Part shown: positions 3,887-45,629 of the stretch, in pieces | How the letters are laid out: every line of letters begins with the position of its first letter | Position numbering within the stretch: position 1 is the stretch's first letter | Assembly (NCBI GenBank): GCA_040769165.1 | Contig: JAXGLP010000001.1 | Location: forward strand, 1,451,702 to 1,515,701 | Length of the DNA stretch: 64,000 bases | Direction: 5' to 3' | Source of the DNA: Armatimonadota bacterium | Lineage (GTDB): Bacteria; Armatimonadota; UBA5829; DSUL01 | Notes under the pieces: model-generated | What the model was told of the DNA's origin: nothing | Database searches by the model: none | Seen by the model: only the letters and a program-made list of their open reading frames with translations | Program-made: the position numbers and the translations under genes

Positions 3887-3930
3887 TCCCGGGCGCCGGC
3901 CCGGCGTGTTCATCTTGAAAGGACAGACAG

Positions 3931-7006: not shown

Positions 7007-7032
7007 GCGGGCCCGGCCGAGAGGTTGGACTG

Positions 7033-7371: not shown

Positions 7372-7425
7372 GCCGTCAGCCGGCAGACACAAGAAGCAAG
7401 GATCGAAAGAAGGAAGAGACCAGCA

Positions 7426-8847
7426 ATGGCAACCACACCGGCAGAAGTTCTGCAGATGATCAGGGACGTCGAAGCGCGCATCGTTGACGTGCGCTTCACC
7501 GACCTCCCGGGCGTCTGGCAGCATTTTTCAATACCAGCAGAGGATCTGGACGAAGCGGCATTCGAGGACGGTCTGGGCTTCGATGGCTCCAGCATCCGGG
7601 GGTTCCAGGACATACAGGAGTCGGACATGACCCTGATGCCCGACCCGAACACCGCCTTCGAGGACACGATGGTGGAGCACCCCACCGTGGCGATTATCTG
7701 CAATGTCCACGACCCCGCCACCGGCGAACGCTACAGCCGCGATCCCCGCTTCATCGCCGCAAAGGCCGAGCAGTATCTGATGTCAACGGGAATAGGCGAC
7801 ACGAGCTACTGGGGCCCCGAAGCCGAGTTCTTTATCTTTGACGACGTCCGCTTCGGACAGACGGCGAACGCGGGTTTCTATTCGGTTGACTCGAGCGAAG
7901 GCATCTGGAACTCCGGCCGCGATGAAATGCCGAATCTCGGCTACAAGATCCGGCACAAGGAAGGCTACTTCCCCTGCCCGCCCATGGACAGCACCCACGA
8001 CCTGAGGAGCGAGATGCTCCTCGCGCTCAGAGACGCGGGTGTAGATGCCGAGATGCACCATCACGAAGTCGGGACGGGGGGACAGGCCGAGATAGACCTC
8101 CGCTACGACACGCTGTTGACGATGGCCGATAAGCTGATGAAGTACAGGTACATCGTCAAGAACATCGCCAACCAGCACGGCAAGACGGTGACGTTCATGC
8201 CCAAGCCCCTGTTCGAGGACAACGGGTCGGGCATGCATGTCCACTCGAGCATCTGGAAGGGCGGGCGCAACGTGTTCTGGGACGAGACCGGCTATGCGGG
8301 GCTTTCGGACACCGCGCGGTACTACATCGGGGGGATTCTGAAACACGCGCCTGCGCTTCTCGCTTTGTGCGCCCCCACGACGAACTCGTACCGCAGGCTC
8401 GTTCCCGGGTACGAAGCGCCGATCAACCTCGTCTATTCGCAGAGGAATCGCAGCGCGGCGGTGAGGATTCCGGCCTACCTGCAGAGCGAGAAATCGAAGC
8501 GGATCGAGTTCCGCTGCCCCGACCCCAGCGCGAACGGGTATCTGTGCCTGGCTTCGATCCTGATGGCGGGTCTGGACGGGGTCCAGAACAGGATTGATCC
8601 CGGCCAGCCGATTGACAAGAACATCTACGACCTGCCGCCGGAGGAATCGAAGACGATTAGAGGCACTCCGGGCGACCTGCATGAGGCGCTCAATGCCCTG
8701 GAGGCCGATCACGAGTTCCTGTTGAAGGGCGACGTGTTCACTCCAGACGTCATTGAGACCTGGATCGGCTACAAGCGAAAGAAAGAGGTGGACGCGGTGC
8801 GCCTGCGGCCGCACCACCACGAGTTCCATCTCTACTTCGACATCTAG
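7426..8847 (+). CDS. glnA: Glutamine synthetase type I
   Basis: 473 aa, canonical GSI sequence throughout. AAGGAAGAG RBS upstream. Confidence 0.95.
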   Translation: MATTPAEVLQMIRDVEARIVDVRFTDLPGVWQHFSIPAEDLDEAAFEDGLGFDGSSIRGFQDIQESDMTLMPDPNTAFEDTMVEHPTVAIICNVHDPATGERYSRDPRFIAAKAEQYLMSTGIGDTSYWGPEAEFFIFDDVRFGQTANAGFYSVDSSEGIWNSGRDEMPNLGYKIRHKEGYFPCPPMDSTHDLRSEMLLALRDAGVDAEMHHHEVGTGGQAEIDLRYDTLLTMADKLMKYRYIVKNIANQHGKTVTFMPKPLFEDNGSGMHVHSSIWKGGRNVFWDETGYAGLSDTARYYIGGILKHAPALLALCAPTTNSYRRLVPGYEAPINLVYSQRNRSAAVRIPAYLQSEKSKRIEFRCPDPSANGYLCLASILMAGLDGVQNRIDPGQPIDKNIYDLPPEESKTIRGTPGDLHEALNALEADHEFLLKGDVFTPDVIETWIGYKRKKEVDAVRLRPHHHEFHLYFDI

Positions 8848-30256: not shown

Positions 30257-32485
30257 TCAGAGCGGCATAATGTCCGCCTGGTCGCGCACCCTGAGCACTC
30301 GCACCAGCGCCCCTTCAACCAACTCGCACGAGCTGATGCCGGTGACGCCGACGTAATAGCCCTCCAGCGGAAGCACGACGCCCTCCGGCGCCGCGCACTT
30401 CAGAATCACGCCCGACCCGTCGTCAATGAAGAAGTACCCGCCGGACGATGAGAGCGCTCCCGTCTGAATCAGCCCCCAGGTCCTGACGAGAAGCCCCACG
30501 TTGTTCAGGCCGAAGAACCCCTCGACCCCGCGCTGGCCCGCGCCGGTGGCGGCATCGTAACTCCGATCCCCGCCAACAATCGCCCGGTTCGGCATTCCGA
30601 GCGGCGTCACGGCCTGCACGGCGCGCGACAGCGTCACCCCGTACGCCGCGATCTTGCGCTCACCATCCACCGTCACCATCGAGCCCTCGATGCTCGTGAC
30701 AACAGCGTCGCGGCTCACCTCAGCGCCCCCGATGACACCGATTCCGTAAGCCCTGTCAGAATCCTCGATCCACCAGTCCGAACCGTCAGCGTGTGTCACG
30801 GAGCAGAGGCCCGTGAAGTCCGCCGGCATACCGTCGGGCTGAGATTTCGCGGCCTCGAAGCCGGACTGCGCGGGAAGGGCCACTTCCGACATATCCTCAC
30901 CTGCGCTGCCGTCCGGATCAGTAGCGACAGCCTTCAGGAAGTAGAGCCCCGGCGGCTTCGCCGTTGTGTCCCACATCACCGACCAGCCGTCACTGGGATC
31001 TAAGTCGGCGCCAATCGGCTGCCACCCGTCGCTGGCCGATGCGCGCTCTCCCGCCGGCGGAGGGCTGCCGGTCATCTGAAAGCCGCTCCCCATGGATGCC
31101 GTGAACTGATTCGGCCCCGACGCAGGGTATGTGAGGGTGCCGTTCGGGCTGACCCTGTAGGTCTCGCTTTTGCCGTTCGCCGGGTTCGTGAACGTCACCT
31201 CGTTGTAGGGATTGCCCTTCTCGTCCTTCTTCTGGTTGTCGTCCACCTTGCTCACAGCCATTGCGTGTCCCCAGCCGTTCGGGCCGCGAATGCAGATTCC
31301 CACCCCCTGCACCTTTCCGGCGGGCTCGGTCATGGCTTTCTTGAGCTTCTTCATGTCAATCGGGCCGGTGATCTCGTTGTACTTCCAGTCAAAGCCCGGG
31401 CACTTCTCTTTCAGATTCCCGAGAACCAGTTGGGACCCTGACTTCGCGCCGTCATCGCTCGTGCCGCCAGCCGTTGTGCCTTTCTTGTCGGCAAGGTTGT
31501 AGACCAGAAGCTGCCTCCCCACCGTCTCGGAGTGGTTCGGGTTGTAGGGGTGATTGGTGTAGTAGTTCCTCACCTGCGGATTGGTCCAGAGGATGCTGGC
31601 CTGCGCGCAGGGGTGACACATGTACTTGCCCGGTTTCTCGGGCGGCCAGTTGTACTGGCCCTGAATGAAGCTTACTGTCGGCAGGGAGACAATCACGGGG
31701 GCCTGCTGCTCGAAGAAGAGCACCTGGTTTGCGCCCTGTGCTCCAGATGCTGTGACGGGCACAACTCCATAGCACCTCCCCCCGAAGGGCGGCGAAGTGA
31801 TCTCTGGCACTGGCGGCGTGTGGTCGAGCCACACCTGGCGGCTGCCGAAGTACACTCCGATGGCCGTGTTCATGGTGACGCGGGCAGTGTAGCCCCCTTC
31901 CGCGCACACACCCGTGTCCCAGTAGGCGCTCCAGCCGTCGCCCTCGGGCGCTGGCTCCGTGCCGTAGATCAGATCGGTCCCGTCGTTGTCCACACCGACG
32001 AACACGGTGAGTCCTGTGTCGTTCGAAACAACCTCGAACGCCGCGCTCAACACCTCGACCCGCGGCTGAGCCGCGCATCCCTTCAGCCGGACTTCGCCCG
32101 TTACGGTCTGCCCATTCTCCGGGTACTGGAAGGTCACAAGATCGGGCTGGTTCAGATACCAGTCGTAGCCTATGGCGGGCTCGGTGATGCCATCAGCCGA
32201 ACTGACCCGGAAGTCGTAGACGATTTCCGTTTCGAAGAGGGGCACGGTGACGCTGTGTTCCGTCACAAGCGCGGGGTCGTAAACGACGTGGGGGTACACA
32301 CCCTCGACGCCGTATTCGACAAGCGAGTCGCCCGGCAGGTCTGTATCCCACGATACCACCACAGTCATCGGCGAAGCCGGGGTGGTCTCGGGGAAGCCGG
32401 CGATCTCGACGCCGGAGGCGCAAGTCCGCAGAAGCACCAGCGCAATAGCCGCGCCGGCAAGCCTGGTCGCTCTCATCGCAGTCAT
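30257..32485 (-). CDS. Secreted multidomain protein (742 aa) with possible Cys/His peptidase core and the shared C-terminal module
   Basis: Signal peptide MTAMRATRLAGAAIALVLLRTCASG, GGAGG RBS. Central MCHPCAQAS...GWGHAMAV could be a papain-like Cys/His pair (speculative). C-terminal ~190 aa match the module shared with six other proteins. Contains a Lys-rich, lower-GC patch around 31200-31500. Confidence 0.7.
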   Translation of the reverse strand: MTAMRATRLAGAAIALVLLRTCASGVEIAGFPETTPASPMTVVVSWDTDLPGDSLVEYGVEGVYPHVVYDPALVTEHSVTVPLFETEIVYDFRVSSADGITEPAIGYDWYLNQPDLVTFQYPENGQTVTGEVRLKGCAAQPRVEVLSAAFEVVSNDTGLTVFVGVDNDGTDLIYGTEPAPEGDGWSAYWDTGVCAEGGYTARVTMNTAIGVYFGSRQVWLDHTPPVPEITSPPFGGRCYGVVPVTASGAQGANQVLFFEQQAPVIVSLPTVSFIQGQYNWPPEKPGKYMCHPCAQASILWTNPQVRNYYTNHPYNPNHSETVGRQLLVYNLADKKGTTAGGTSDDGAKSGSQLVLGNLKEKCPGFDWKYNEITGPIDMKKLKKAMTEPAGKVQGVGICIRGPNGWGHAMAVSKVDDNQKKDEKGNPYNEVTFTNPANGKSETYRVSPNGTLTYPASGPNQFTASMGSGFQMTGSPPPAGERASASDGWQPIGADLDPSDGWSVMWDTTAKPPGLYFLKAVATDPDGSAGEDMSEVALPAQSGFEAAKSQPDGMPADFTGLCSVTHADGSDWWIEDSDRAYGIGVIGGAEVSRDAVVTSIEGSMVTVDGERKIAAYGVTLSRAVQAVTPLGMPNRAIVGGDRSYDAATGAGQRGVEGFFGLNNVGLLVRTWGLIQTGALSSSGGYFFIDDGSGVILKCAAPEGVVLPLEGYYVGVTGISSCELVEGALVRVLRVRDQADIMPL

Positions 32486-32615: not shown

Positions 32616-35600
32616 CTAAAGCACAATCTGATCCGTATCAGAACGCGGCACGATCACGGGCGCGTAGCCGCCTTCCGCCGCCTCGATCCGGACGATGCCC
32701 GTCACGATGACGAAGTCCCCGGCCCCCGCCGGAGCGCTGAGCAGAGAGGCATCAACCTTCAGGCCCGCGCAGGACCCATCGGTGATGGTCAGGTAGCCAT
32801 TGCCCGCGGACAGCACCCTTCCCCAGGTTCTGACGAGCAGCCCGACGTTGTTCAGGCCCGCGCCTCCGGTGGCCCCGCGCTGTCCGGCTCCGGTCGCGCT
32901 GTCGTACAGCCAGTCCTCTCCCCCAACGTGGGAGTTAGTCATGCCGAGAGCTTCGGGCACGCCCACAAATCCGGTCTGCACAACCGACGAAGCCGCCAGA
33001 TACCGTTCCCCGCCGCTCGTGCCCAGGATTCCACACACGACAGCCGCCGCACCGTGCGGCAGTGCTGTGTTGACCACCCTGATGCCGCTGGCGCGGGAGG
33101 GATCCTCGAGGTAGTTCGCCATCGAGAACGCCGCGGTGACGACGGCGTCCGCGATGGCGACCTCCGCCGAATCAGGATAGGCCTTCATCTCGGCAACCGT
33201 GCCTCCCGGCACTTCCGTCAGCGTACAGTCGTCGAAGGCATTGATGTTCCACTCGAGAGGGAGAATCTGCTGAGCATCCAGATACACTGTGATATACGAA
33301 GAAGACGCGCGAGCGCAGACGCAGATCTGCTGCCAGCCGCCGGACGTCGAACGCGGCGACCAGACTATGGACGATGACCCGGAGTCCGTGCCGCCCGCCG
33401 GATCTATCCCCACCCTGTTGTTCGCATTCGCCGCGTCTCCGCCCGCGACGTAGGTCTGGCTGTAAGCGCAGAACCTGTAGAACCTACCCTGCACGACAGG
33501 CACGCGCTGATAGAACCCGCCGCTCTTCGCATCGTAGCTGGCCGCGCTCCCGGCGTAGTTCACCCCGCTTCTCGGATTGAAAGAGAAGTACCAGCCCGGC
33601 CCCTGAATCCCATTGTCTCCAGCGTCATCGAACCGCCCGTACCGCGTCCAGTACGCCTCCTGCGACTCGAAACCGGGGTTTCTCAGCACGCCGGGCTCCG
33701 GAAGAGTATCGAACGTGAAATCGCCGGACACGGCGGACGCGAAGCCCGTCGCGGAAGACACCACCCGGTAATGATAGGTCTGGCCGGGCAGCAGAGGCCC
33801 GAGCGCCAGCGCGTGGGATGTGACGGCCGCGCTCGAAACGGCCGACTGGCCGTAGCTGGTGTTCAGCCCATACTCGACCCTGCTGTCCGAGGGCACGTCC
33901 GTGGTCCACGAGATCGCCGCCCCCGTCTGCGAAATGCCGGAAGCCGTGGGCCCGGACGTGATGAGGATCGTGGGCGCGGATGCCGTCGTGAACTCCACAT
34001 CGCCCGAATAGACGCGGTTGTACCCCGCGGCGCCCGAGCTTGCGCGTGCGTGATACGTTCGGCCCGCCGACAGGCCGGAGACAAGCACGCTGTGACTCGT
34101 GACGCCGCCCGCTCCCGTCGCCGACTGCCCGTAGGCAGCCGTCTCCCCGTACTCGACCACGCTGTCGGACGCCACGTTCGTGCTCCACGTTATATACGCC
34201 GACGTGGCCGTGATGCTTTGCACGGTGGGCCCTGAAGTGATCTGCATGTTCTGCAGGCTCTGGTCCTCCGCGACGCAGATGTCGTCGAACGCGCTCTTGT
34301 TCCACTCGTACGAGCTGTTCTGCGAGTAGTGCAGGAAGACGGTGATATACGGCGAGGACGCCACAGCCTTCACCAGAGACGGTCCATACCTGTTGAACGA
34401 TGTATTCCAGTCGCTCCAGACGACGCCCGCCGCGGACGGATTTACGCCGCCAGCCGGGTCAATGCCGATGCGCCCGCGGCAGTTGCCCGGGTACTCGTTC
34501 TGGCGGTCTCCGCCCGACCAGGAATCGGAGTAGATGTATCCCGACGCCGCGTACTGAACGCCCGGAACCCCCGCCACCCGCTGATATGCCCCACCGTTCT
34601 TGACCCCCCAGCTGGCGACCGCTCCGGCGTACCTGGAGCCGCTGTGGGACGGTATCGCCCAGTTCAGGCTGCTGTACACCGTGAGGCCGTCACCAAAGCC
34701 GACCCAGGGGGAAGCCACCGCGCTTCCCGCGACGCCCGACTCGAAGCCGGGGTTCGTGAGCAGATTGGCGAGCGGGCTGATGTCAACCGTAACCGACGTT
34801 ACGCTGCCCGCCGCAACGGTCTGCGGCGCGCTCACGCCCTGAGTGTGACAGGGTTTCCAGGCTGTGACTGTGTACGAACCCGGCGGCAGGGTAGTAAACG
34901 CGAAGGAGCCGTCGGGCTGAGTCTCCTGCGTGTAATCCCCGGGAGACAGAGTCACGACAGCGCCCCCTGCGCCCGACCCGCCGCTCGTGACCGTGCCCTC
35001 TAGCGTCCCGGCGCTTGCCGACCCGACGCTCATGCAGCACACAAAGCCCTGCAGGTCCGTCGCCGGCATCGGCGCTCCGTTCAGGTGGTACGACCCGGCC
35101 GGGTAGTTGTTGCCGGTGACAAAGCAGTTGAGCCCGCCGGAGCGCGTGATCTTGAGATAGTAAGTCTGTCCCGGCACGACCGGGGCCTCGCTGACGCCGA
35201 ACGGCAGCACCCAGAGAATCGGCTGACGCACGGGAATGGACTTCGGCCCGGCCACCCGCGCGCCGTTCGGGCCGCCTTCCAGAATCTCGGCGGTCCAGCT
35301 CAGGGCGTAGTTCTCGCCGATGGCCCCGTGGAACTGGACGGCCGCCACACGGTCGCCGGTTGCGACGAAAGTCTGCCCGTGGCTGGCAACCCAGCTCGAC
35401 AGGCTGTACGTATCGCTGTCCGCACTGGCATAGTTCGTTGAGTAGTACGCCAGGCTTTTCGTGTGCGGCGCGTCGTTGTCGTAGGAGGTGGAGGTGTTCA
35501 GCGTGCCGTTCAGACTCGTATCGAAGGAGCCGGGCGTATTGCGGTCGGGCTTGTACACAAAGCCCAGCTCGTAGGAATAATGCCCCCAGTTGGGCCAGCG

Positions 35601-35945
35601 CCGGGTGGTCATCACCGGCGCGACGTCGCTCTCCGACCCCAGCGTATCAACGCACTTCATGTCGTACGCCGCATTGGCGACGTCCATCGGGACCTCGAGC
35701 CGCCCGTCCGTATCCGTCGTGCCCAACAGCACATCCCACGTGGTGTATACCTTTACCCCGGGTTTCGGGAAACCGTTCTGATCCCACACCCACACGAAAA
35801 TGGAGTGGTTCATCGCGTTCTCGTGAGAACCAATCTCGCGCCAGAACGCGAGCGAGTACCGTCCGGCGGCAAGCGCCGGAACACAGGCGAGGACGAAAGC
35901 GGCCAGAAGGATGCACAGCAGCGTCAGTCGCAGACTTTGTCGCAC
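32616..35945 (-). CDS. Secreted multidomain protein (1109 aa): carboxypeptidase-regulatory-like domain, two CBM4/9/22-like (NPGFES...) domains, two FN3 purple-acid-phosphatase-N-like domains, shared C-terminal module
   Basis: GTG start with AAAGGAG RBS; signal peptide. Internal repeats 'LTNPGFESGVAGSAVASPW...' / 'LRNPGFESQEAYWTRYGRF...' and 'ITSGPTVQSITATSAYITWSTNVASDSVVEYGETAAYGQSA' / 'ITSGPTASGISQTGAAISWTTDVPSDSRVEYGLNTSYGQSA'. C-terminal module at about 32616-33190. Confidence 0.8.
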   Translation of the reverse strand: MRQSLRLTLLCILLAAFVLACVPALAAGRYSLAFWREIGSHENAMNHSIFVWVWDQNGFPKPGVKVYTTWDVLLGTTDTDGRLEVPMDVANAAYDMKCVDTLGSESDVAPVMTTRRWPNWGHYSYELGFVYKPDRNTPGSFDTSLNGTLNTSTSYDNDAPHTKSLAYYSTNYASADSDTYSLSSWVASHGQTFVATGDRVAAVQFHGAIGENYALSWTAEILEGGPNGARVAGPKSIPVRQPILWVLPFGVSEAPVVPGQTYYLKITRSGGLNCFVTGNNYPAGSYHLNGAPMPATDLQGFVCCMSVGSASAGTLEGTVTSGGSGAGGAVVTLSPGDYTQETQPDGSFAFTTLPPGSYTVTAWKPCHTQGVSAPQTVAAGSVTSVTVDISPLANLLTNPGFESGVAGSAVASPWVGFGDGLTVYSSLNWAIPSHSGSRYAGAVASWGVKNGGAYQRVAGVPGVQYAASGYIYSDSWSGGDRQNEYPGNCRGRIGIDPAGGVNPSAAGVVWSDWNTSFNRYGPSLVKAVASSPYITVFLHYSQNSSYEWNKSAFDDICVAEDQSLQNMQITSGPTVQSITATSAYITWSTNVASDSVVEYGETAAYGQSATGAGGVTSHSVLVSGLSAGRTYHARASSGAAGYNRVYSGDVEFTTASAPTILITSGPTASGISQTGAAISWTTDVPSDSRVEYGLNTSYGQSAVSSAAVTSHALALGPLLPGQTYHYRVVSSATGFASAVSGDFTFDTLPEPGVLRNPGFESQEAYWTRYGRFDDAGDNGIQGPGWYFSFNPRSGVNYAGSAASYDAKSGGFYQRVPVVQGRFYRFCAYSQTYVAGGDAANANNRVGIDPAGGTDSGSSSIVWSPRSTSGGWQQICVCARASSSYITVYLDAQQILPLEWNINAFDDCTLTEVPGGTVAEMKAYPDSAEVAIADAVVTAAFSMANYLEDPSRASGIRVVNTALPHGAAAVVCGILGTSGGERYLAASSVVQTGFVGVPEALGMTNSHVGGEDWLYDSATGAGQRGATGGAGLNNVGLLVRTWGRVLSAGNGYLTITDGSCAGLKVDASLLSAPAGAGDFVIVTGIVRIEAAEGGYAPVIVPRSDTDQIVL

Positions 35946-36271
35946 AGGAAGGCTCCTTTCGCGCCCGGGGGCGCCACTCCACTTGTACCACCGACGCCGT
36001 GCGCTGTCAATCGCGAAAGCGCGAGCGCCTCGCCCGCCCTCCGGCGGCTGCTCCGCGCGCGCCTCGGGGTTGTTGACGGAAAAGGCTTGAAACGGTACAA
36101 AGCTGCAGAAAACTTGTGCGCAGCGGCAGGAGAGTCCAGGCCCGTTGTTGAACGCCCCGCTGATAGCGCACGAGCCAGGGAGTGGGCCGGGCCGGCGCTG
36201 ATCTGGACAGCGCTGGCTATGTGGCGGCTCGTCCGATGATGTGTATCTGTTATGAAAGGTAGACAGGGATC

Positions 36272-38776
36272 ATGAGAAACACACCCTCCATTCGCCCTGC
36301 TCGCTTACTCGGGCTTCTGGTGTGCCTGCTGGCGCTGGGAATGACGGCCGCGCCGTCGTTCGCCAACGTCTTTGCCGCACACCTGAGTGCCGCCGGAAGC
36401 GAGTGGAATTTCGGGACTCAGGGCAACCTGACCATCAACTACAGGCTCAACCAGCCTGCCACGTCCGTAACCATTGAGGTCTTCCGGGCCGCCGACCCGG
36501 CGACAGTGGTGAAGACCATCGCAGGAACGACAACCTGGGGTCTGAACACAGTTGTGTGGGACGGCACCAAGGATGGCGGCGGACTTGCTCCCAAGTCCGG
36601 CGGATACAAGTTCCGGGTCAAGGCTGAAGACGCCGTGGGCGCCAGCTCATGGACGAACATTACTCCGCTCGACGCCGGCGGCGAGATCGGCAGCGCGCAG
36701 TATTACGCGCCGCAGGGAATCGCCATCAACAAGGACCAGACGAGCCCGTTCTTCGGGCAGATCTACATCTCCAGCGCTGAGGACGCAAGCCCGTCCACCA
36801 ACCCGGGCGCGACAGCCATGGGCGACGGGCTGTTCCTGCTAATGAGTGACATGACGTTCCGGGGCGGCAGCGCCGAGACCGCCAAAGCGGCGGCCAACAG
36901 CAGCCTCATCACCGCAACTGCTGCGACACCTGACACCTACCGCTACAGCCCGTGGAAGCTGTCCATCAACCATGACAACTGGAACGAGATTGTCATGGCG
37001 GACTACCTTGACGGCTGGGAGGAAGTCTGGGTGTTCAACGCCGACGGGACGTCGGTTAAGCGGCTGCTGAACAAAGAGACCACCGGTCCGAACGCCGCGG
37101 TTGAGGCCTTCAACCACGGCAATCAGCTCGAGATCGCGATCAAGGGCGTAGGCGACAAGCGCAAGCTGTTCGGCCTCGATGAGGACAAGGACCCGGAGCC
37201 CGCGCACTCCATCACCGGGCCGCAGTTCCTGCGCTGGGACATCGGAACCGTGCAGGAGAACTTTGTTGGCCAGCCGGCGGAACTGCTGAACGGTGGATAC
37301 GTGATCCCGCCGGCGCAGATCGGCGGGGGCACCAGCACCAGCTTCTACACTGCGTTCGGAATGTACATCGGGCAGGTCAGCGGCGACGCCTACATCTGCA
37401 ACCGCCGCTATAACAACGATCTTGGTAATCAGGCCATGTTCAGGGCCGACCTGGACGCCGAAGGCAAGCTGCTTGGCACTGTTTGGGCATGGCAGACCAC
37501 GGAGCTTACCGCGGCAATACAGGCGATTGACCCGACCTTCCCGTGCTGGTGCCGCACGGACTCTATCGCGGTTGATGAAGGCCGCAAGAGAGGCGTGGCG
37601 ATCCGCGACGGATCGACAATCACTGACATAGGATGCCCTGGAACCGTCGCCGGTGGACGCGCTGTCGTGTTCGACACGGACAACGGCGCTGTGCTGGCCG
37701 CGTTCCCGGTCAGCGATACGGGCAACTCGGTCCGCGACTGCGAGTTTGACGCAGCCGGCAACCTGTACACGGGCTGCCAGTCGGACGAGCATGTGCGGAT
37801 GTGGTCACCGCCGGACGGACCGAACAGCTTCACGACCACCTACTACGGCAATGTGGCCACCAGCAACCTGAAAGTGACCGTCGAGCAGGCCGGCGCGCAG
37901 GCTGACCCGACCGGGACCAGCCCCATCAACTTCACCGCCACGTTCAGCGCCCCGGTCACCGGATTCGACTCGGCGGACGTTATCGTCGGCGGCACGGGCG
38001 AGCCGACTGGCGCAACCGTTACCGGCGGCCCGAGCGTTTACAACATCGCGGTCACCGGCATGTCCGGCAACGGCACCGTGACGGCTTCCATCGCCCCGGA
38101 CGCGGCGGTTGACGGCTCGGGCAACCCGAACCAGCCCTCCACCAGCGTGGACAACACCGTGCTGTATCAGGCGCCGGAGACGGTTGGCAAGGCGAAGACG
38201 CGCACGGACGGCACACTGGTCTGGCTGGCGGATGTTGTCGTGACGAAGATCATCGGCAACGACTTCTTCGTTCAGGACAAGGACCGCGCTGCTGGCGTGC
38301 GGGTGGTGGTTTCCGGCGGGACTCCGTCCGTTGCCGTGAACACGCTCGTTAGCCTCACCGGCACCATTGGCACGGCTGGCGCCGAGCGCATCCTCAACGT
38401 CGAACTCGCGAACATCACGGCTGGCGCCGCGTTCACGGCGGTTCCGCTGCAGACGCGCTCTGGCGATGCTGGCGGCGACAAGGTTGCCAGCGGCGCGGGG
38501 CTTCCGGATGACGGCCTGCTTGCCACCATGGCCGGCAAGGTGACCGAGACCGACTTCTACAGCTACGTCTATCTCGATGACGGCTCTGTCGTGTCGAACG
38601 ACTCCACGACCCCGGTGAAGGGCATCAAAATAGACCTGACGACGTCCACCATCGGCATCGTGCCCCTGCCCGATCAGTATGCGAAGGTCACGGGTGTGGT
38701 GCGCGCGCTTCAGGCTGGAGACAAGGTTATTCCTGTCATTCAGCCGCGCGACGACGCGGATATCGCTGTCGAGTAG
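36272..38776 (+). CDS. Secreted FlgD-Ig-like/Big-domain protein, paralog 1 (834 aa) with shared C-terminal module
   Basis: Signal peptide (...AAPSFA|NVFAAHL). N-terminal FlgD-Ig-like domain (VTIEVFRAADPATVVKTI...WDGTKDGGGLAPKSGGYKFRVKAED). Central region with NHL/propeller-like DxGNSVRD...AAGNLY. Bacterial Ig-like domain. C-terminal module at about 38180-38776. Confidence 0.85.
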   Translation: MRNTPSIRPARLLGLLVCLLALGMTAAPSFANVFAAHLSAAGSEWNFGTQGNLTINYRLNQPATSVTIEVFRAADPATVVKTIAGTTTWGLNTVVWDGTKDGGGLAPKSGGYKFRVKAEDAVGASSWTNITPLDAGGEIGSAQYYAPQGIAINKDQTSPFFGQIYISSAEDASPSTNPGATAMGDGLFLLMSDMTFRGGSAETAKAAANSSLITATAATPDTYRYSPWKLSINHDNWNEIVMADYLDGWEEVWVFNADGTSVKRLLNKETTGPNAAVEAFNHGNQLEIAIKGVGDKRKLFGLDEDKDPEPAHSITGPQFLRWDIGTVQENFVGQPAELLNGGYVIPPAQIGGGTSTSFYTAFGMYIGQVSGDAYICNRRYNNDLGNQAMFRADLDAEGKLLGTVWAWQTTELTAAIQAIDPTFPCWCRTDSIAVDEGRKRGVAIRDGSTITDIGCPGTVAGGRAVVFDTDNGAVLAAFPVSDTGNSVRDCEFDAAGNLYTGCQSDEHVRMWSPPDGPNSFTTTYYGNVATSNLKVTVEQAGAQADPTGTSPINFTATFSAPVTGFDSADVIVGGTGEPTGATVTGGPSVYNIAVTGMSGNGTVTASIAPDAAVDGSGNPNQPSTSVDNTVLYQAPETVGKAKTRTDGTLVWLADVVVTKIIGNDFFVQDKDRAAGVRVVVSGGTPSVAVNTLVSLTGTIGTAGAERILNVELANITAGAAFTAVPLQTRSGDAGGDKVASGAGLPDDGLLATMAGKVTETDFYSYVYLDDGSVVSNDSTTPVKGIKIDLTTSTIGIVPLPDQYAKVTGVVRALQAGDKVIPVIQPRDDADIAVE

Positions 38777-38840
38777 CAGTTCCGAAGCGAACTGACTGAT
38801 TCGAATGAGGGGCCCGGAGCGGAAACGCTCCGGGCCTTCT
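36450..38840 (+). repeat. Near-identical ~2.4-kb direct repeat, copy A (paralog 1 body plus terminator)
   Basis: Identical track ORFs at 36552..36842 and 42233..42523 give an offset of 5681 bp. The protein alignment shows roughly 15 substitutions over ~760 aa. Boundaries approximate. Confidence 0.8.
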
Positions 38841-38845
38841 TTCGT
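38809..38845 (+). terminator. Rho-independent terminator after paralog 1
   Basis: GGCCCGGAGCG-GAAA-CGCTCCGGGCC followed by TTCTTTCG. Confidence 0.7.
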
Positions 38846-39076
38846 CCGGGAGCAGTGCGGGCAGGTATTTGTACGGATTGACGGGAGGCGCGAGAAGCAG
38901 TACAAAGAACTAAGAAATGCGTGTCAGCCGCCCATCGCACGAGGATGCGAGCGCGTCGGCCGCATAGGCCAGCGCACTCATGTTCCGTCTTGTGCCAGGC
39001 AGCCGCCGTTCTGGATGGCGCCCGCGGGTGGCTTCCGCTTTGCTTGCTGCCTCTGCATCGAAAGGAAGAGAGGGAC

Positions 39077-41590
39077 ATGAATAGAACCCAGTTCAATCGC
39101 TCCACGGTTTACCCCGTCCTCATTCTCGCTCTGCTCGCTGTCGCCGCGCCGTCCTACGCGAACGTGTATGCGGCGCACCTGGCGCCAGCGGCAAATGAGT
39201 GGGATTTCGGGACTCAGGGCAACCTCACCATCACTTACAGGCTCAACCAGCCTGCCACTTCAGTCACCATCGAGATCTTTCGTGCGGCTGAGCCCGGGAC
39301 GGTGGTGAAGACCATCACCGGGACCACCACGTGGGGTCTCAACACAGTTGTCTGGGACGGTACGAAGGACGGCGGCGGACTCGCCCCGAAATCCGGCGGC
39401 TACAAGTTCCGGGTCAAGGCCGAGGACAACGTCGGCTCCAGTTCGTGGACGAATATCACCCCGCTGGACGGCGGCAATGAGATCGGCAGCGCGCAGTTCT
39501 ACGCGCCCGAGGGCATCGCGATCAACAGGGACCAGAACAGCCCCCGGTTCGGACAGATCTACATATCGAGCGGGTACGACGTTGGCCCGTCGGCCAACCC
39601 CGGGGCGAGCGCGTTCGGTGACGGTCTCTTCCTGCTGATGAGCGACATGACATTCAGAGGAGGCACGGCCGACGGGGCGAAGGCCGCGGCAAACAGCAGC
39701 CTCATCACCAGCCTCTTCGCCGGCACGCCCGCCGACGCAAACAGCTACAGCCCCTACAAGCTGAGCATCAACAACGACAACTCCGACGAGATCGTGATGT
39801 CGGACTACTGGTTCCTGTCGGGGTCGAGCGCCTTCGAGAACGTGTGGGTGTTCAACGGCGACGGCACGTCGGTCAAGCGGCTGCTGAACAGCGATACGAC
39901 GGGACCGACCACAGGCGACGCCTTCAACCACGGCAACCAGACGGAAGCTGCCATCAAGGGCATCGGCGAGTCGCGAAGGCTGTTCGGGCTGGATGCGGAC
40001 AAAGACGCCGGCGTGGCCCATTCCATCACGGGCCCCGACTTTCTCCGCTGGGATATCGGCCAGACACAGGAGAACTTCACCAGCCAGCCTGTCGAGTTGC
40101 TGAACGGAGGCTACGTCATTCCCGTAGCCCAGACAGGGGCGGGAACGAGAACCAGCTTCTACTCTGCCCGAGGGCTCAGCATTGGCCAGGTGAGCGGCGA
40201 CGCGTACATCTGCAACCTTCGCTACAACAACTCGCTTGGGAACCAGGCCATGTTCAGGGCGGACCTCGACGCTGAGGGCAATGTCGCGGGGACCGTCTGG
40301 GCGTGGCAGAATCCGCAGTTGACCACGGCCATTCAGGCGGTTGACCCTACGTTCCCCTGCTGGACGCAGAGCACGGCCATTGCAGTGGATGAAGCCCGCC
40401 AGAGGGGCGCGGCGCTGCGGCTGGGTGCAACGTATACGGATACCGGATGCCCCGGGACTGTGCCGGGCGCCCGCGCTGTCGTCTTTAACACGAATGACGG
40501 GACGGTGCTTGCGGCGTTTCCGATCAGCGACACGGGCAACTCGGCGCGCGACCTGGATTTCGATGCGGCCGGGAACCTGTACACGACCAACCAGGCTGAT
40601 GAACACGTGCGGATGTGGTCGCCTCCGGACGGTCCGAACAGCTTCACGACGACCTACTACGGCAATGTCGCTACCAGTTCGCTGAAGGTTACGGTGGAGC
40701 AGGCCGCCGCGCAGGCTGACCCGACGGGCGCCAGCCCCATTAACTTCACCGCCACGTTCAGCGCGCCCGTTACCGGGTTCACTTCGTCGGATGTGAACCT
40801 CGGCGGCACAGGCGAACCGACAACCGCGACAGTTACCGGCGGCCCGAGCGTTTACAACATTGCGGTCACCGGCATGTCCGGCAACGGCACGGTGACGGCG
40901 TCGGTCGCTCCGGACGCGGCGGTTGACGGCTCCGGCAACCCGAACCAGCCCTCCACGAGCGCGGATAACACGGTGCTGTATCAGGCGCCGGAGTCGGTCG
41001 GCAAAGCCAAGACCCGTTTGGACGGCACGCTGGTCTGGCTGGCCGATGTCGTTGTGACGAAGATCATCGGCAACGACTTCTTCGTGCAGGACAAGGACCG
41101 CGCCGCGGGCGCGCGCATTCTGGTTTCGGGCGGCACGCCGTCCGTGGCCGTTAACACGCTGGTCAGTCTGAGGGGCACGGTGGCAACGGCTGGCGCGGAG
41201 CGCGTCGTGAATGCCGAGCTGGCAAACATCACCAGCGGCGCCGCGTTCACGGCGGTACCGCTTCAGACGCGCTCGAGCGATGCTGGCGGCGACAAGGTTG
41301 CCGGCGGCGCCGGGCTTCCGGATGACGGCCTGCTGGCTACAGTGGCCGGGAGGGTGACCGAGACGGACTTCTACAGCTATGTCTATCTGGACGATGGCTC
41401 TGTTGTGGCCAACGACGCGACAACCACCGCAAAGGGCATCAAGATAGACCTGACGACGTCCACAATCGGCATCGTGCCCATGCCCGATCAGTATGCGAAG
41501 ATCACGGGTGTGGTGCGGGCGCTTCAGGCTGGGGACAAGGTCATTCCTGTCATTCAGCCCCGCGACGACGCGGATATCGCTGTCGAGTAG
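39077..41590 (+). CDS. Secreted FlgD-Ig-like/Big-domain protein, paralog 2 (divergent copy, 837 aa) with shared C-terminal module
   Basis: Start at ATG 39077 (AAAGGAAGAGAGGGAC RBS) inside track ORF 38921..41590. About 70-75% identical to paralogs 1 and 3 in the N-terminal two-thirds, and near-identical in the last ~300 aa. Confidence 0.85.
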   Translation: MNRTQFNRSTVYPVLILALLAVAAPSYANVYAAHLAPAANEWDFGTQGNLTITYRLNQPATSVTIEIFRAAEPGTVVKTITGTTTWGLNTVVWDGTKDGGGLAPKSGGYKFRVKAEDNVGSSSWTNITPLDGGNEIGSAQFYAPEGIAINRDQNSPRFGQIYISSGYDVGPSANPGASAFGDGLFLLMSDMTFRGGTADGAKAAANSSLITSLFAGTPADANSYSPYKLSINNDNSDEIVMSDYWFLSGSSAFENVWVFNGDGTSVKRLLNSDTTGPTTGDAFNHGNQTEAAIKGIGESRRLFGLDADKDAGVAHSITGPDFLRWDIGQTQENFTSQPVELLNGGYVIPVAQTGAGTRTSFYSARGLSIGQVSGDAYICNLRYNNSLGNQAMFRADLDAEGNVAGTVWAWQNPQLTTAIQAVDPTFPCWTQSTAIAVDEARQRGAALRLGATYTDTGCPGTVPGARAVVFNTNDGTVLAAFPISDTGNSARDLDFDAAGNLYTTNQADEHVRMWSPPDGPNSFTTTYYGNVATSSLKVTVEQAAAQADPTGASPINFTATFSAPVTGFTSSDVNLGGTGEPTTATVTGGPSVYNIAVTGMSGNGTVTASVAPDAAVDGSGNPNQPSTSADNTVLYQAPESVGKAKTRLDGTLVWLADVVVTKIIGNDFFVQDKDRAAGARILVSGGTPSVAVNTLVSLRGTVATAGAERVVNAELANITSGAAFTAVPLQTRSSDAGGDKVAGGAGLPDDGLLATVAGRVTETDFYSYVYLDDGSVVANDATTTAKGIKIDLTTSTIGIVPMPDQYAKITGVVRALQAGDKVIPVIQPRDDADIAVE

Positions 41591-41621
41591 GCGTTCATCA
41601 GAGAGCTGACCTGTTCGATTC

Positions 41622-41658
41622 GAGGCCCGGAGCGGAAACGCTCCGGGCCCTCTTTTCC
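41622..41658 (+). terminator. Rho-independent terminator after paralog 2
   Basis: GGCCCGGAGCGGAAACGCTCCGGGCC followed by CTCTTTTCC. Confidence 0.7.
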
Positions 41659-41952
41659 TGGGCTCCTGATACTGTAGAGCACGGCAGAGTGCGGCACGGA
41701 GAAGGTTTTTTGCGTTGATTTTGCCTGCACGAGGCCTGCATGGATTGACTTTGGCGCGGCTGAAGATGTACACATTAGGCAGGGTCCGCGCGCCCGTGGA
41801 GGTCTCAGGAACTCTGCCGGGACGCTGACTGTGGCCGAATCGCGTGGGCTCGAATGTCGTCGAAAGCCCCGCAGGCGCCGTTTGCGGAGGGTGCTTGCAC
41901 GAGGGCTTTATGTCAGTCGTCTGTTAATGGGAAGGAAAGGAAGAGAGGGATC

Positions 41953-44457
41953 ATGACTCGCAAACCCTCTACACTCTTTGCTCGATCGCTGGCGCTGTTG
42001 GTGTGCGCTCTCGCGCTTGGCATGGCGGCCGCGCCGTCTTATGCCAACGTGTATGCCGCGCACCTGGGCGCTGCCGGAAACGAATGGGATTTCGGCACCC
42101 AGGGCAACCTGGCTATCACCTACAGGCTCAATCAGCCTGCGACATCGGTTACCATCGAGATCTACCGCGTTGCCGACCCGGCGACAGTGGTGAAGACCAT
42201 CGCAGGAACGACAACCTGGGGTCTGAACACAGTTGTGTGGGACGGCACCAAGGATGGCGGCGGACTTGCTCCCAAGTCCGGCGGATACAAGTTCCGGGTC
42301 AAGGCTGAAGACGCCGTGGGCGCCAGCTCATGGACGAACATTACTCCGCTCGACGCCGGCGGCGAGATCGGCAGCGCGCAGTATTACGCGCCGCAGGGAA
42401 TCGCCATCAACAAGGACCAGACGAGCCCGTTCTTCGGGCAGATCTACATCTCCAGCGCTGAGGACGCAAGCCCGTCCACCAACCCGGGCGCGACAGCCAT
42501 GGGCGACGGGCTGTTCCTGCTGATGAGTGACATGACGTTCCGGGGCGGCACTGTCGAGACCGCCAAAGCTGCGGCCAACAGCAGCCTCATCACCGCAACA
42601 GCCGCGACACCCGACACCTACAACTACAGCCCTTGGAAGCTGACGATCAACCATGACAACTGGAACGAGATCGTCATGTCGGACTACCTTGACGGCTGGG
42701 AGGAAGTCTGGGTGTTCAACGCCGACGGGACGTCGGTTAAGCGGCTGCTGAACAAAGAGACCACCGGTCCGAACGCCGCGGTTGAGGCCTTCAACCACGG
42801 CAATCAGCTCGAGATCGCGATCAAGGGCGTCGGCGACAAGCGCAAGCTGTTCGGCCTCGATGAGGACAAGGACCCGGAGCCCGCGCACTCCGTCACCGGG
42901 CCGCAGTTCCTGCGCTGGGACATCGGAACCGTGCAGGAGAACTTTGTTGGCCAGCCGGCGGAACTGCTGAACGGTGGATACGTGATCCCGCCGGCGCAGA
43001 TCGGCGGGGGCACCAGCACCAACTTCTACACTGCGTTCGGCATGTACATCGGGCAGGTCAGCGGCGACGCCTACATCTGCAACCGCCGCTATAACAACGA
43101 TCTTGGTAATCAGGCCATGTTCAGGGCCGACCTGGACGCCGAAGGCAAGCTGCTTGGCACTGTTTGGGCATGGCAGACCACGGAGCTTACCGCGGCAATA
43201 CAGGCGATTGACCCGACCTTCCCGTGCTGGTGCCGCACGGACTCTATCGCGGTTGATGAAGGCCGCAAGAGAGGCGTGGCGATCCGCGACGGATCGACAA
43301 TCACTGACATAGGATGCCCTGGAACCGTCGCCGGTGGACGCGCTGTCGTGTTCGACACGGACAACGGCGCTGTGCTGGCCGCGTTCCCGGTCAGCGATAC
43401 GGGCAACTCGGTCCGCGACTGCGAGTTTGACGCAGCCGGCAACCTGTACACGGGCTGCCAGTCGGACGAGCATGTGCGGATGTGGTCACCGCCGGACGGA
43501 CCGAACAGCTTCACGACCACCTACTACGGCAATGTGGCCACCAGCAACCTGAAAGTGACCGTCGAGCAGGCCGGCGCGCAGGCTGACCCGACCGGGACCA
43601 GCCCCATCAACTTCACCGCCACGTTCAGCGCCCCGGTCACCGGATTCGACTCGGCGGACGTTATCGTCGGCGGCACGGGCGAGCCGACTGGCGCAACCGT
43701 TACCGGCGGCCCGAGCGTTTACAACATCGCGGTCACCGGCATGTCCGGCAACGGCACCGTGACGGCTTCCATCGCCCCGGACGCGGCGGTTGACGGCTCG
43801 GGCAACCCGAACCAGCCCTCCACCAGCGTGGACAACACCGTGCTGTATCAGGCGCCGGAGACGGTTGGCAAGGCGAAGACGCGCACGGACGGCACACTGG
43901 TCTGGCTGGCGGATGTTGTCGTGACGAAGATCATCGGCAACGACTTCTTCGTTCAGGACAAGGACCGCGCTGCTGGCGTGCGGGTGGTGGTATCCGGCGG
44001 GACTCCGTCCGTTGCCGTAAACACGCTCGTTAGCCTCACCGGCACCGTGGGCACCGCTGGCGCGGAGCGCATCCTCAACGTGGCCCTGGCGGACATCACT
44101 GCGGGCGCGGCGTTCACGGCGGTTCCGCTGCAGACGCGCTCGAGCGATGCTGGCGGCGACAAGGTTGCCAGCGGCGTCGGCCTTCCGGACGACGGCCTGC
44201 TTGCCACGGTTGCCGGTCAGGTGACCGAGACGGACTTCTACAGCTACGTTTACCTTGATGACGGCTCTGTCGTGGCGAACGACTCCACGACCCCGGTCAA
44301 GGGCATCAAGATAGACCTGACGACGTCCACCATCGGCATCGTGCCCCTGCCTGAGCAGTATGCGAAGGTCACGGGTGTGGTGCGCGCGCTTCAGGCTGGA
44401 GACAAGGTTATTCCTGTCATTCAGCCGCGCGACGATGCGGATATCGCTGTCGAGTAG
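41953..44457 (+). CDS. Secreted FlgD-Ig-like/Big-domain protein, paralog 3 (834 aa) with shared C-terminal module
   Basis: Start at ATG 41953 (GGAAGGAAAGGAAGAGAGGGATC leader) inside track ORF 41854..44457. About 98% identical to paralog 1 after residue ~75; the N-terminal signal-peptide region differs. Confidence 0.85.
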   Translation: MTRKPSTLFARSLALLVCALALGMAAAPSYANVYAAHLGAAGNEWDFGTQGNLAITYRLNQPATSVTIEIYRVADPATVVKTIAGTTTWGLNTVVWDGTKDGGGLAPKSGGYKFRVKAEDAVGASSWTNITPLDAGGEIGSAQYYAPQGIAINKDQTSPFFGQIYISSAEDASPSTNPGATAMGDGLFLLMSDMTFRGGTVETAKAAANSSLITATAATPDTYNYSPWKLTINHDNWNEIVMSDYLDGWEEVWVFNADGTSVKRLLNKETTGPNAAVEAFNHGNQLEIAIKGVGDKRKLFGLDEDKDPEPAHSVTGPQFLRWDIGTVQENFVGQPAELLNGGYVIPPAQIGGGTSTNFYTAFGMYIGQVSGDAYICNRRYNNDLGNQAMFRADLDAEGKLLGTVWAWQTTELTAAIQAIDPTFPCWCRTDSIAVDEGRKRGVAIRDGSTITDIGCPGTVAGGRAVVFDTDNGAVLAAFPVSDTGNSVRDCEFDAAGNLYTGCQSDEHVRMWSPPDGPNSFTTTYYGNVATSNLKVTVEQAGAQADPTGTSPINFTATFSAPVTGFDSADVIVGGTGEPTGATVTGGPSVYNIAVTGMSGNGTVTASIAPDAAVDGSGNPNQPSTSVDNTVLYQAPETVGKAKTRTDGTLVWLADVVVTKIIGNDFFVQDKDRAAGVRVVVSGGTPSVAVNTLVSLTGTVGTAGAERILNVALADITAGAAFTAVPLQTRSSDAGGDKVASGVGLPDDGLLATVAGQVTETDFYSYVYLDDGSVVANDSTTPVKGIKIDLTTSTIGIVPLPEQYAKVTGVVRALQAGDKVIPVIQPRDDADIAVE

Positions 44458-44521
44458 CAGTTCCGAAGCGAACTGACTGATTCGAATGAGGGGCCCGGAG
44501 CGGAGACGCTCCGGGCCCTTG
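42131..44521 (+). repeat. Near-identical ~2.4-kb direct repeat, copy A' (paralog 3 body plus terminator)
   Basis: See copy A. 3' flank CAGTTCCGAAGCGAACTGACTGATTCGAATGAGGGGCCCGGAGCGGA(A/G)ACGCTCCGGGCC is conserved. Confidence 0.8.
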
Positions 44522-44528
44522 TTTTCGC
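44489..44528 (+). terminator. Rho-independent terminator after paralog 3
   Basis: GGGCCCGGAGCGGAGACGCTCCGGGCCC followed by TTGTTTTCG. One substitution relative to the paralog-1 terminator. Confidence 0.7.
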
Positions 44529-44540
44529 CTCAGGAATCCG

Positions 44541-45629
44541 TCAGGAAGCGCGCGTGAGTATGAAATGGGCCATGCCGCCGAGCGTTTCCCGCCAGTCCGC
44601 CCCGATGCGAGCAGCGGCAAGGGCGTCGAGCGCCTCCCGAACAAGGCGCTCAGCCGTCTGCTCGGCATAGCGCCGGGCGCCTGTGCTGGTGACGATCTCT
44701 CTCACCTTCTCGACGTCCGCGGGCGATGCCGCGTCATCGCCCCACACCCGCCTCAGGAGATCGCGCCCGGCTTCGTCCGAAGTCTCATAGGCTCGCGATA
44801 TCAGGAGCGTTGACTTGCCCTCACGAATGTCGGAGTCAACCGGCTTCCCGGTCGCGACTTCATCGCCAAAAAGGCCCAGAATATCGTCCTTGATCTGAAA
44901 GGCCCGGCCAAGTGGTATTCCAAAACTTGTGAACGCCGCGAAGACAGAATCATCCGCGCCCGCGGCGGCCGCGCCGAGGTGAAGCGGGCGCTCGAGGGTG
45001 TACTTTCCGGACTTGAGACTGAGGATGCTCCAGATGTCCTGTTCGGGCGCCGGAGCTGGGCGGCTCGATGCGACCACATCCAGAAACTGACCCTCGATCA
45101 CTTCCTCGCGCATCGTGTTCCAGACGTCCCGGACAGCCTCCCGCCGCTCCGAGTCGAGCCGGGCGCTGTCGATGAGCGTATCGGAGAGCGCCAGCGCGAG
45201 ATCGCCGATTAGCAGGGCCGCCGAGACTCCGAAATGCGCCGCGTCGCCGCGCAGCCCATGTTTGCCGTGCCACGCCTCCCACATCCGGTGCGCGGTCGGC
45301 AGACCCCGGCGCAGATCGGACCTGTCCATTACGTCGTCGTGGGCGAGCGCGAAGACGTGCAGCATCTCCGCGGCAGCCGCCACGGGCATTACATCATCGT
45401 AGCGTGCTCCACCGCCGGCAAGATATCCGGCCTCAACCAGAAACGGCCGAATCCGTTTGCCCGGACGCAGCGCATAGTCCTGAACCCCTGAGAGAAACTC
45501 GTCTAGGCCCCCGTCCCGCGCGGCCGCGATGGCGCGCCGCTCGGCCACGAAGGCCGCAAGCCACGCGTCAAACCGGGTCTGGAAGCCGCGGAGATCCTCC
45601 GCGAACCCTCCGGCGGATGCCGCGCTCAA
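44541..45629 (-). CDS. Polyprenyl diphosphate synthase (trans-isoprenyl diphosphate synthase family)
   Basis: First and second Asp-rich motifs (ALAHDDVMDRSDLRRG and FQIKDDILGLFGD). Confidence 0.75.
   Translation of the reverse strand: MSAASAGGFAEDLRGFQTRFDAWLAAFVAERRAIAAARDGGLDEFLSGVQDYALRPGKRIRPFLVEAGYLAGGGARYDDVMPVAAAAEMLHVFALAHDDVMDRSDLRRGLPTAHRMWEAWHGKHGLRGDAAHFGVSAALLIGDLALALSDTLIDSARLDSERREAVRDVWNTMREEVIEGQFLDVVASSRPAPAPEQDIWSILSLKSGKYTLERPLHLGAAAAGADDSVFAAFTSFGIPLGRAFQIKDDILGLFGDEVATGKPVDSDIREGKSTLLISRAYETSDEAGRDLLRRVWGDDAASPADVEKVREIVTSTGARRYAEQTAERLVREALDALAAARIGADWRETLGGMAHFILTRAS

Follow-up and report, generated by a model that had tools for sequence, protein, structure and literature searches.

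The babA/babB/babC and homA/homB genes of Helicobacter pylori are intact, separately expressed paralogs that encode surface proteins. The ends of these genes are homogenized or locus-specific and the middle, the ligand-binding region, is diverse; recurrent intragenomic gene conversion is combined with allelic diversity between strains (PMC4552749, PMC2795765, PMC3960876). The tufA/tufB genes and the cases collected in PMC6053082 are old duplicates held similar by repeated conversion, with flanks that keep their true age. Features of both groups are found in the locus described here, an array of three tandem genes, A1, B, and A2, on contig JAXGLP010000001.1 of an Armatimonadota bacterium. The stretch analyzed, termed the window, has a length of 64,000 nucleotides (nt). 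The array lies on the chromosome of an uncultured Armatimonadota-like bacterium, and its three tandem paralogs are old. The reading favored here, with a probability of about 0.8, is that these paralogs evolve in concert by mosaic gene conversion, with alleles of the head domain that were probably imported.

There are differences from the known systems. The bab and hom genes are dispersed and encode beta-barrel outer-membrane proteins, unrelated in sequence to the array proteins and with a known role in host adhesion. The array in contrast consists of adjacent direct repeats that encode a soluble-type multidomain secreted protein in an environmental uncultured bacterium. The cases in PMC6053082 are mostly housekeeping genes homogenized over their full length, whereas the array is a mosaic with strongly diverged alleles of one domain. 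The array is a real and clear but ordinary case of the upkeep of a bacterial surface-protein family; the behavior is already known, and the protein family, the tandem arrangement and the organism differ.

Array Anatomy and Similarity Among the Copies

The three genes and the segments that distinguish A1 from A2 are as follows. Nucleotide positions within a gene are counted from its start codon, and protein positions are in amino acids (aa).

36272–38776, + strand: copy A1, 834 aa, from the open reading frame and its translation
39077–41590, + strand: copy B, 837 aa, the divergent middle paralog
41953–44457, + strand: copy A2, 834 aa, 5681 bp downstream of A1
36272–36490 (nt 1–219), + strand: locus-specific 5′ end of A1; the A2 counterpart is 41953–42171
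36491–36840 (nt 220–569), + strand: 350-nt perfect tract in A1, identical to A2 42172–42521
37361–38310 (nt 1090–2039), + strand: 950-nt perfect tract in A1, identical to A2 43042–43991
38311–38674 (nt 2040–2403), + strand: 3′ island of A1, with an A1/A2 difference of ~10% in the window

The longest open reading frame of B begins at 38921 and that of A2 at 41854; the homologous ATG codons, each preceded by the leader, are at 39077 and 41953. The offset between A1 and A2 is 5681 bp at the starts and at the stops, with no indels. A preliminary description of this DNA had pointed to three co-directional genes of 834–837 aa, each with its own leader and a near-identical hairpin, and the coordinates and motif scans agree with this.

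Across the 2386 nt from nt 220 to 70 nt beyond the stop, A1 and A2 have 97.4% DNA identity, compared with 76% for the initial 225 nt. Amino acid identity is 63% at aa 1–30 and 80% at aa 31–75. The identity of ~98%, the 5681-bp offset and the different first ~75 codons that had been reported for the outer copies are thus borne out. The perfect runs are separated and followed by two internal islands of divergence that had not been noted, a patchy one at nt 570–1089 and another at nt 2040–2403 with about 90% identity. B shows 72.5% DNA identity with A over nt 1–1600 and 86% over nt 1601–2505, which corresponds to 74% aa identity over the first 534 aa and 90% over the last 300 aa. The 5′-to-3′ gradient of identity described for B therefore stands, but to call its last ~300 aa almost identical to the other copies was an overstatement.

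Silent Sites, Age, and Selection

Divergence at four-fold degenerate sites (differences/sites) changes abruptly along the A1–A2 comparison.

First 75 codons: A1–A2 18/36, A1–B 16/30, A2–B 20/31
aa 76–160: A1–A2 0/50, A1–B 23/43, A2–B 23/43
aa 381–520: A1–A2 0/78, A1–B 32/59, A2–B 32/59
aa 521–680: A1–A2 1/105, A1–B 36/94, A2–B 37/94

The A1–A2 values are 0–0.03 within the tracts and about 0.5 in the first 75 codons. A–B divergence in the same tracts is 0.38–0.54, thus none of the tracts is a mutational cold spot. Between A1 and A2, up to 188 four-fold sites in succession are unchanged; the maximum in 20000 permutations was 112, and the observed length was reached in none (0/20000).

Against the sister species L007 (about 90% DNA identity), clean alignments were obtained for two flanking genes, and their four-fold divergence is 0.22–0.28. 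The 5′ ends of the paralogs give 0.48–0.65, about twice as much, which places the origin of the paralogs before the split of the two species. The position of the array is conserved in L007, an Armatimonadota metagenome-assembled genome (MAG) that is the closest named genome. Judged from silent sites, the three paralogs are equally and deeply diverged at their 5′ ends and all are old.

The ratio of nonsynonymous to synonymous substitution (dN/dS, Nei-Gojobori), whose course along the genes had been proposed as a check, points to purifying selection throughout. For A1 versus A2, dS is 0.78 and dN/dS 0.12 at aa 31–75. The locus-specific 5′ end shows dS of 0.78–0.87 with dN/dS of 0.12–0.31, the A–B center shows dN/dS of 0.12–0.17, and values outside of the signal peptide range from 0.06 to 0.38. 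The preliminary description had proposed a recent duplication with hypervariable N-termini under selection or relaxed constraint. Neither part can be maintained: the A1–A2 divergence in the first 75 codons equals that from B and exceeds that of the flanks from L007, and the 5′ ends are both constrained (dN/dS 0.12) and 97–100% conserved between strains. The N-termini are the unconverted remnant of an old duplication, situated outside of the conversion tracts, and are neither recent nor hypervariable.

Four-fold divergence between A and B also declines toward the 3′ end, from 0.58 in the first 520 codons to 0.38 at aa 521–790 and 0.20 in the last 44 codons. This gradient of silent divergence by itself suggests an older exchange between A and B; in the run-length permutation test for A1–B, the observed longest run was reached in 732 of 20000 permutations, a marginal result.

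Comparison Between Strains

Contigs of the same species, designated by L numbers, were recovered from several independent metagenome assemblies by exact-protein look-ups and one DNA-pattern scan. L001, L002, L003, and L039 represent SPAdes, MEGAHIT, and Joint Genome Institute (JGI) assemblies of different samples. The order A1–B–A2 is tiled independently of the window by L004, which contains the upstream flank, the whole of A1 and the start of B, and by L001 and L002, which run from the end of A1 through B and A2 into the flank.

L001–L003 are 99.2–99.4% identical to the window over 5.7–16 kb, aligned from 38168, 38606, and 41476 onward. The differences are clustered. In L002 and L003, 87–88 of the 91–97 differences are at 42500–43750, the center of A2; in L001 the same segment holds 87 of 138, and 25 more are in the 3′ end of A1. 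The flanks are 99.9–100% identical to the window. A2 of L001, L002, L003, and L039 is 100% identical to A2 of the window at both ends and 77–97% identical over nt 570–1645, and the JGI contig L039 carries the same A2 allele as L001. Site patterns were scored on the trio consisting of A1 and A2 of the window and A2 of L001, where pattern Y denotes locus-specific sites and pattern Z denotes variants private to A2 of the window.

nt −30 to 219: all sites locus-specific (A2 = A2), 60+ informative sites of pattern Y
nt 220–485 (~266 nt): no differences, A2 of L001 being identical as well
nt 486–1100: short patches of mixed pattern, with about 10 variants found only in A2 of the window
nt 1148–1645: about 70 consecutive sites where A2 of the window equals A1 of the window and is unlike A2 of L001
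nt 1646–2039: no differences
nt 2040 to end: locus-specific again

At nt 1148–1645, A2 of the window is 100% identical to A1 of the window and only 77–96% identical to A2 of L001, L002, L003, and L039. This segment is a young conversion tract. Within it, paralogs in one genome are more alike than orthologs of close relatives, as is characteristic of concerted evolution.

Other strains show other tracts. The 5′ end of A1 in L004 is A1-specific and 97–99% identical to that of the window; the 5′ ends of A2 in the window and L001 are 99–100% identical. The center of A1 in L004 has 50–87% DNA identity to any window copy, with dN/dS of 0.16–0.32 relative to A1 of the window. The 3′ part then shows 100% identity at nt 1644–2039, is A2-type at nt 2040–2358, and returns to A1-type from nt 2400. 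In both L001 and L004 the 3′ part of A1 (nt 2040/2095–2358) is A2-type with switches within 40 nt, and in the 3′ end of A1 with which L001 starts, A1-type and A2-type patches of 20–60 nt alternate. These switches are shorter than 141 nt, which is below the assembler k-mer, and are common to SPAdes and MEGAHIT contigs; thus they are not graph artifacts. The presence of several independent A1/A2 exchange events in very closely related genomes is a signature of ongoing gene conversion. This had been suspected from the window alone and is now supported by the tract in A2 and by the different tract boundaries in other strains.

B is 98.9–100% identical across five assemblies and is therefore stable between strains. 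The head allele of A1 differs by 13–50% in DNA sequence between strains whose neighboring sequence is identical. It is the central beta-propeller-like domain, and not the N-terminus, in which the strains vary.

Assembly of the Array

L001–L007 all break inside the array. The preliminary description had called the locus prone to deletion or amplification and to assembly collapse. The breaks bear out the assembly part; deletion is only possible, as the case for it is a contig of poor quality, L038 (ERZ1026814 NODE_5257). In L038 the A1 upstream flank is followed by one gene, an A1/A2 hybrid, and then by the downstream flank of A2. This is the form expected from a deletion between A1 and A2, but the contig has a Nextera adapter at one end and 4x coverage, and assembly collapse is equally possible. 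L040 joins the A1 5′ end to an L001-type center at 1.8x coverage. Positions 4642–5317 of this contig, in reverse complement, form a tail unrelated to the window; an ABC-transporter-like membrane fragment is encoded on its opposite strand, and the join is most likely chimeric. L038 and L040 are given little weight because of the adapter, the coverage of 1.8–4x and the foreign tail. L042, which is error-ridden at 0.5x coverage, was left out.

Proposed Mechanism and Alternative Explanations

Non-reciprocal homologous recombination between direct repeats, presumably of the RecA type, would copy segments from one array gene to another in tracts ranging from tens of nucleotides to >0.5 kb. In the window lineage a recent tract would have turned the A2 center identical to A1, the probable direction of transfer. 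In other strains, different tracts would have carried A2-type sequence into the 3′ part of A1, and B may have become partly homogenized with A, through an older exchange, in the third that encodes the Ig-like and OB-fold domains. Outside the tracts are the flanking spacers and the first ~220 nt, which keep their original divergence; conversion would keep this third of the genes uniform, along with parts of the FlgD_ig region. The head-domain alleles of A1, and to a lesser degree A2, are strongly diverged between strains and probably entered by homologous recombination with other lineages. Conversion would then spread or reshuffle these alleles among the copies.

A recent duplication of A, followed by fast divergence of the N-termini through positive selection or relaxed constraint, would account for an identity of 97% past codon 75 and 76% before it. 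It is very improbable, since dS of 0.78 with dN/dS of 0.12 at aa 31–75 marks the difference as old and under purifying selection, the four-fold divergence equals that from B, each N-terminus is 97–100% conserved between strains, and a second old island is present at nt 2040–2403. A mosaic produced mainly by allelic replacement, i.e. by import of head-domain alleles from other strains or species and not by exchange between copies, gains from the center of A1 in L004, which is distant from every window copy next to 3′ sequence that is 100% identical, and from an upstream gene that diverges by 3–16% between strains with downstream flanks that are 100% identical. However, import leaves unexplained the 950-nt and 350-nt perfect identity of paralogs in one genome and the A2-type patches within A1. 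As the main cause it is unlikely; import complements gene conversion and does not replace it. Programmed variation by silent cassettes, a diversity-generating retroelement or an invertible promoter might be suggested by secreted proteins that form a tandem family and have a variable domain, but is barely credible here. The three open reading frames are intact, each with leader, start codon and terminator; domain scans of the ~38 window genes show no reverse transcriptase, integrase, transposase or invertase; an inverted-repeat search yields nothing besides the terminator palindromes; Rfam and tRNA scans of the window are empty; and substitutions are spread over all base classes with no adenine bias (11 and 8 of 54). 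Thus a silent-cassette system of the pilE/pilS or vlsE type, which needs promoterless or truncated donors, does not fit copies that are all full-length with leader, ATG and terminator. A diversity-generating retroelement is rejected by the absence of a reverse transcriptase domain from the window genes and of adenine-specific differences, and phase variation by an invertible promoter by palindromes that are terminators only and by the absence of a recombinase from the window genes.

It is quite unlikely that repeats and co-existing strains, assembled chimerically or collapsed, gave rise to the A1/A2 near-identity and some of the mosaic alleles. In favor of such an artifact, all related short-read contigs break within the array, L038 carries an adapter and L040 a foreign tail, and several points weigh against gene conversion as read here. 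The 950-nt perfect repeat is beyond short-read bridging and a chimeric path that used the A1 center twice is possible; the window-type center is found in no other assembly; and exact-product look-ups of A1, both upstream neighbors and the fumarase-family gene returned no record. The A1 allele of the L001-type strain was not confidently recovered, and the two low-coverage contigs L038 and L040 hint that A1 of that strain carries the L001-type center. In addition, stronger codon constraint could also produce the A–B gradient, and the beta-propeller assignment stands on weak sequence matches. Set against an artifact are the about 10 variants private to A2 of the window (pattern Z, nt 600–1089 and 2040), which show that this gene is no simple splice of two alleles, and the tract switches in L001 and L004 within 20–40 nt, below the k-mer and common to SPAdes and MEGAHIT. 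The graded homogenization of B and the identity of nt 220–485 and 1646–2039 in all strains depend on no single assembly. The private variants and the sub-k-mer patches argue that gene conversion is real even if one tract were not.

Protein Domains

The array proteins show the following regions, given for A1.

aa 1–31: Sec-type signal peptide, read from the translation, ending …APSFA and followed by NVFAAHL
aa 44–120 (about 42–120 across copies): FlgD_ig (PF13860), a Pfam match
aa ~125–525: beta-propeller-like center, from weak sequence matches
aa 534–634: Ig-like domain, from sequence search
aa ~636–834: tandem OB-fold C-terminal domain, matching solved OB folds

The signal peptides of all three copies end with A-x-A, followed by a conserved NV[FY]AAHL. 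FlgD_ig is above the gathering score in 3/3 copies (35.7–40.5 bits, cutoff 27). The proteins are not FlgD itself, as the flagellar FlgD equivalog gives 23 bits where 230 are required, far under the cutoff. The ~400-aa center is putatively beta-propeller-like. Its matches are to WD40 proteins at aa 450–511 (E-value = 0.009–0.1) and to WD40_Prp19 (E-value = 0.13), with NHL found in a Bacteroides homolog. A full-length AlphaFold2 prediction from a 9-sequence alignment gave a mean confidence (pLDDT) of 37 and the model was not used. The Ig-like domain matches thousands of giant multi-repeat proteins, a repeat that dominated the exhaustive search. For the N-terminal module, word-indexed searches yielded no more than 7 and 12 relatives, too few for a deep alignment of the head domain.

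Homologs of the N-terminal module, at 24–50% identity, are found in Phycisphaerae, Planctomycetota, Verrucomicrobiota, Neomarinimicrobiota, Omnitrophota, and Bacteroides, sometimes as adjacent pairs. Such pairs, with FlgD_ig and the propeller-like module, are present in Bacteroides and Planctomycetales: L024 5350–7964 (Bacteroides nordii), L018 10001–12946, and L010 10058–15209. The array proteins resemble the FlgD_ig secreted proteins of Bacteroidota, Planctomycetota, and Verrucomicrobiota in having a signal peptide, a FlgD-type Ig domain and a beta-propeller-like module. They differ at the C-terminus, where the relatives carry a type IX secretion system (T9SS) sorting domain (Bacteroides) or an Ig domain with a dockerin-like tail (Phycisphaerae, from sequence) and the array proteins carry Ig and tandem OB folds. 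In B. nordii, where the pair adjoins a SusC/RagA transporter gene, a fusion to an amidase and a T9SS sorting domain is seen in one copy; this context fits an extracellular role by analogy. The array proteins are secreted and are probably associated with the cell surface or envelope. This reading is drawn from the signal peptides, the FlgD_ig and Ig domains, the T9SS-sorted Bacteroides homolog next to SusC, and the C-terminal domain common to other secreted proteins.

The C-terminal domain consists of five-stranded closed beta-barrels that match solved OB folds. Together with the Ig domain it is homogenized between copies, and the central domain is variable. A tandem-OB domain of ~200 aa is present in five neighboring secreted proteins.

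38177–38773, 40991–41587, and 43858–44454, + strand: tandem-OB domain of A1, B, and A2
32619–33260 and 30260–30901, − strand: tandem-OB domain of the two upstream neighbors

It is found in about 50 further proteins with unrelated N-termini (choice-of-anchor Q, fn3, beta-helix, FKBP, RCC1, subtilase), nearly always at the extreme C-terminus and ending with [VL]xPRxxxD[IV]. The named carriers are all called Armatimonadota. No Pfam or NCBIfam model matches the domain, and scans of the array proteins and their C-terminal 214 aa with these collections show no T9SS Por_Secre_tail, PEP-CTERM or LPXTG signal. The nearest described family is the BOF/YgiW periplasmic OB-fold proteins (PF04076; PDB 1nnx), where the array match of 15 bits is below the Pfam threshold of 25.8. 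BOF/YgiW is a small stand-alone protein, whereas each of the large multidomain array proteins ends in a tandem of two OB folds. The tandem-OB domain is a candidate for a lineage-specific anchor or sorting signal of secreted Armatimonadota proteins.

In L041 (coverage 1.3x), B lacks 108 nt in frame (window 41224–41331), and with them the linker that connects the two OB folds; CTGGC microhomology borders the deletion on both sides.

Leader, Terminator, and Spacers

Each gene is bounded by its own signals.

36254–36271 (A1), 39060–39076 (B), and 41935–41952 (A2), + strand: purine-rich 16-nt leader and ribosome-binding region, by motif scan
38811–38836 (A1), 41624–41649 (B), and 44492–44517 (A2), + strand: intrinsic-terminator hairpin, by motif scan and folding

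The leader GAAAGGNAGANAGGGA has three matches in the window (36254, 39060, and 41935; 0.27 expected), each just 5′ of an array start codon. It ends as GGGAC-ATG in B and GGGATC-ATG in A1 and A2. The hairpin GGCCCGGAGCGGARACGCTCCGGGCC occurs three times in the window (38811, 41624, and 44492; 0 expected), 35–36 nt past each stop codon. It shows an 11–12 bp GC stem with a GAAA loop followed by a T-rich tail, and a folding energy of −39 to −48 kcal/mol (z = −4 to −5.9). The B copy is identical to that of A1, and the A2 copy has one loop change. The repeat unit thus extends from leader to terminator, about 2.6 kb.

What the intergenic spacers have in common is limited to about 60 nt of terminator and about 16–18 nt of leader. 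The remaining 220–280 nt are unrelated, which indicates that each gene has its own promoter region of about this length; a sigma-70 scan of 35800–44800 detected no promoter. With its own promoter region, ribosome-binding leader and intrinsic terminator, each of the three genes appears to be independently expressed.

Neighboring Genes

Two divergent genes are situated upstream of the array.

32616–35945, − strand: divergent neighbor, 1109 aa, secreted, with CarboxypepD_reg, fn3, Pur_ac_phosph_N and a tandem-OB C-terminus
30257–32485, − strand: second neighbor, 742 aa, with a signal peptide and a tandem-OB C-terminus

The gene for the 1109-aa protein shows 3–16% divergence between strains. The segment 34080–36270, which covers part of this gene and the spacer before A1, is 74–97% identical between the window and L004 or L040. 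Downstream of the array, identity of the flank to the window is 100% for L038 and 99.9% for L001; thus the variable region reaches upstream beyond the array.

Elsewhere the window is ordinary chromosome. Its genes include a branched-chain amino-acid ABC transporter, a fumarase-family lyase, SbcCD, a polyprenyl synthase and MnmG. A complete nitrogen-regulation cluster (GlnR-type regulator, AmtB, PII, GlnD, glutamine synthetase) is found at 1868–8847 (+ strand). A subtilase-family giant of 2274 aa with Ig-like and purple-acid-phosphatase-N-like domains is found at 11968–18792 (− strand) and does not carry the tandem-OB tail.

Significance

The locus breaks short-read assemblies and can give chimeric alleles; long reads are needed before the alleles or the copy number found in MAGs of this lineage can be trusted. 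Metagenome population data nevertheless catch conversion tracts of different ages at one locus, and what appeared from a single genome to be variable N-termini turns out to be what conversion has left of an old duplication. To our knowledge, gene conversion among surface-protein paralogs is well documented in pathogens and rarely so in uncultured environmental phyla.

A role as a surface-variation locus, the idea raised by the first description, is plausible, and shuffling of head domains may be of adaptive value. A wider interpretation is tentative and rather doubtful: the array and its neighbors may form an island that varies between strains and encodes at least five secreted proteins, in which an undescribed Armatimonadota-specific tandem-OB anchor or sorting module, with its Ig spacer, is kept uniform by conversion and diverged propeller heads are imported and shuffled among three expression sites. 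If true, this would be an environmental analog of the variation of adhesins or antigens, for which pressure from phages or predators may be the driving force.

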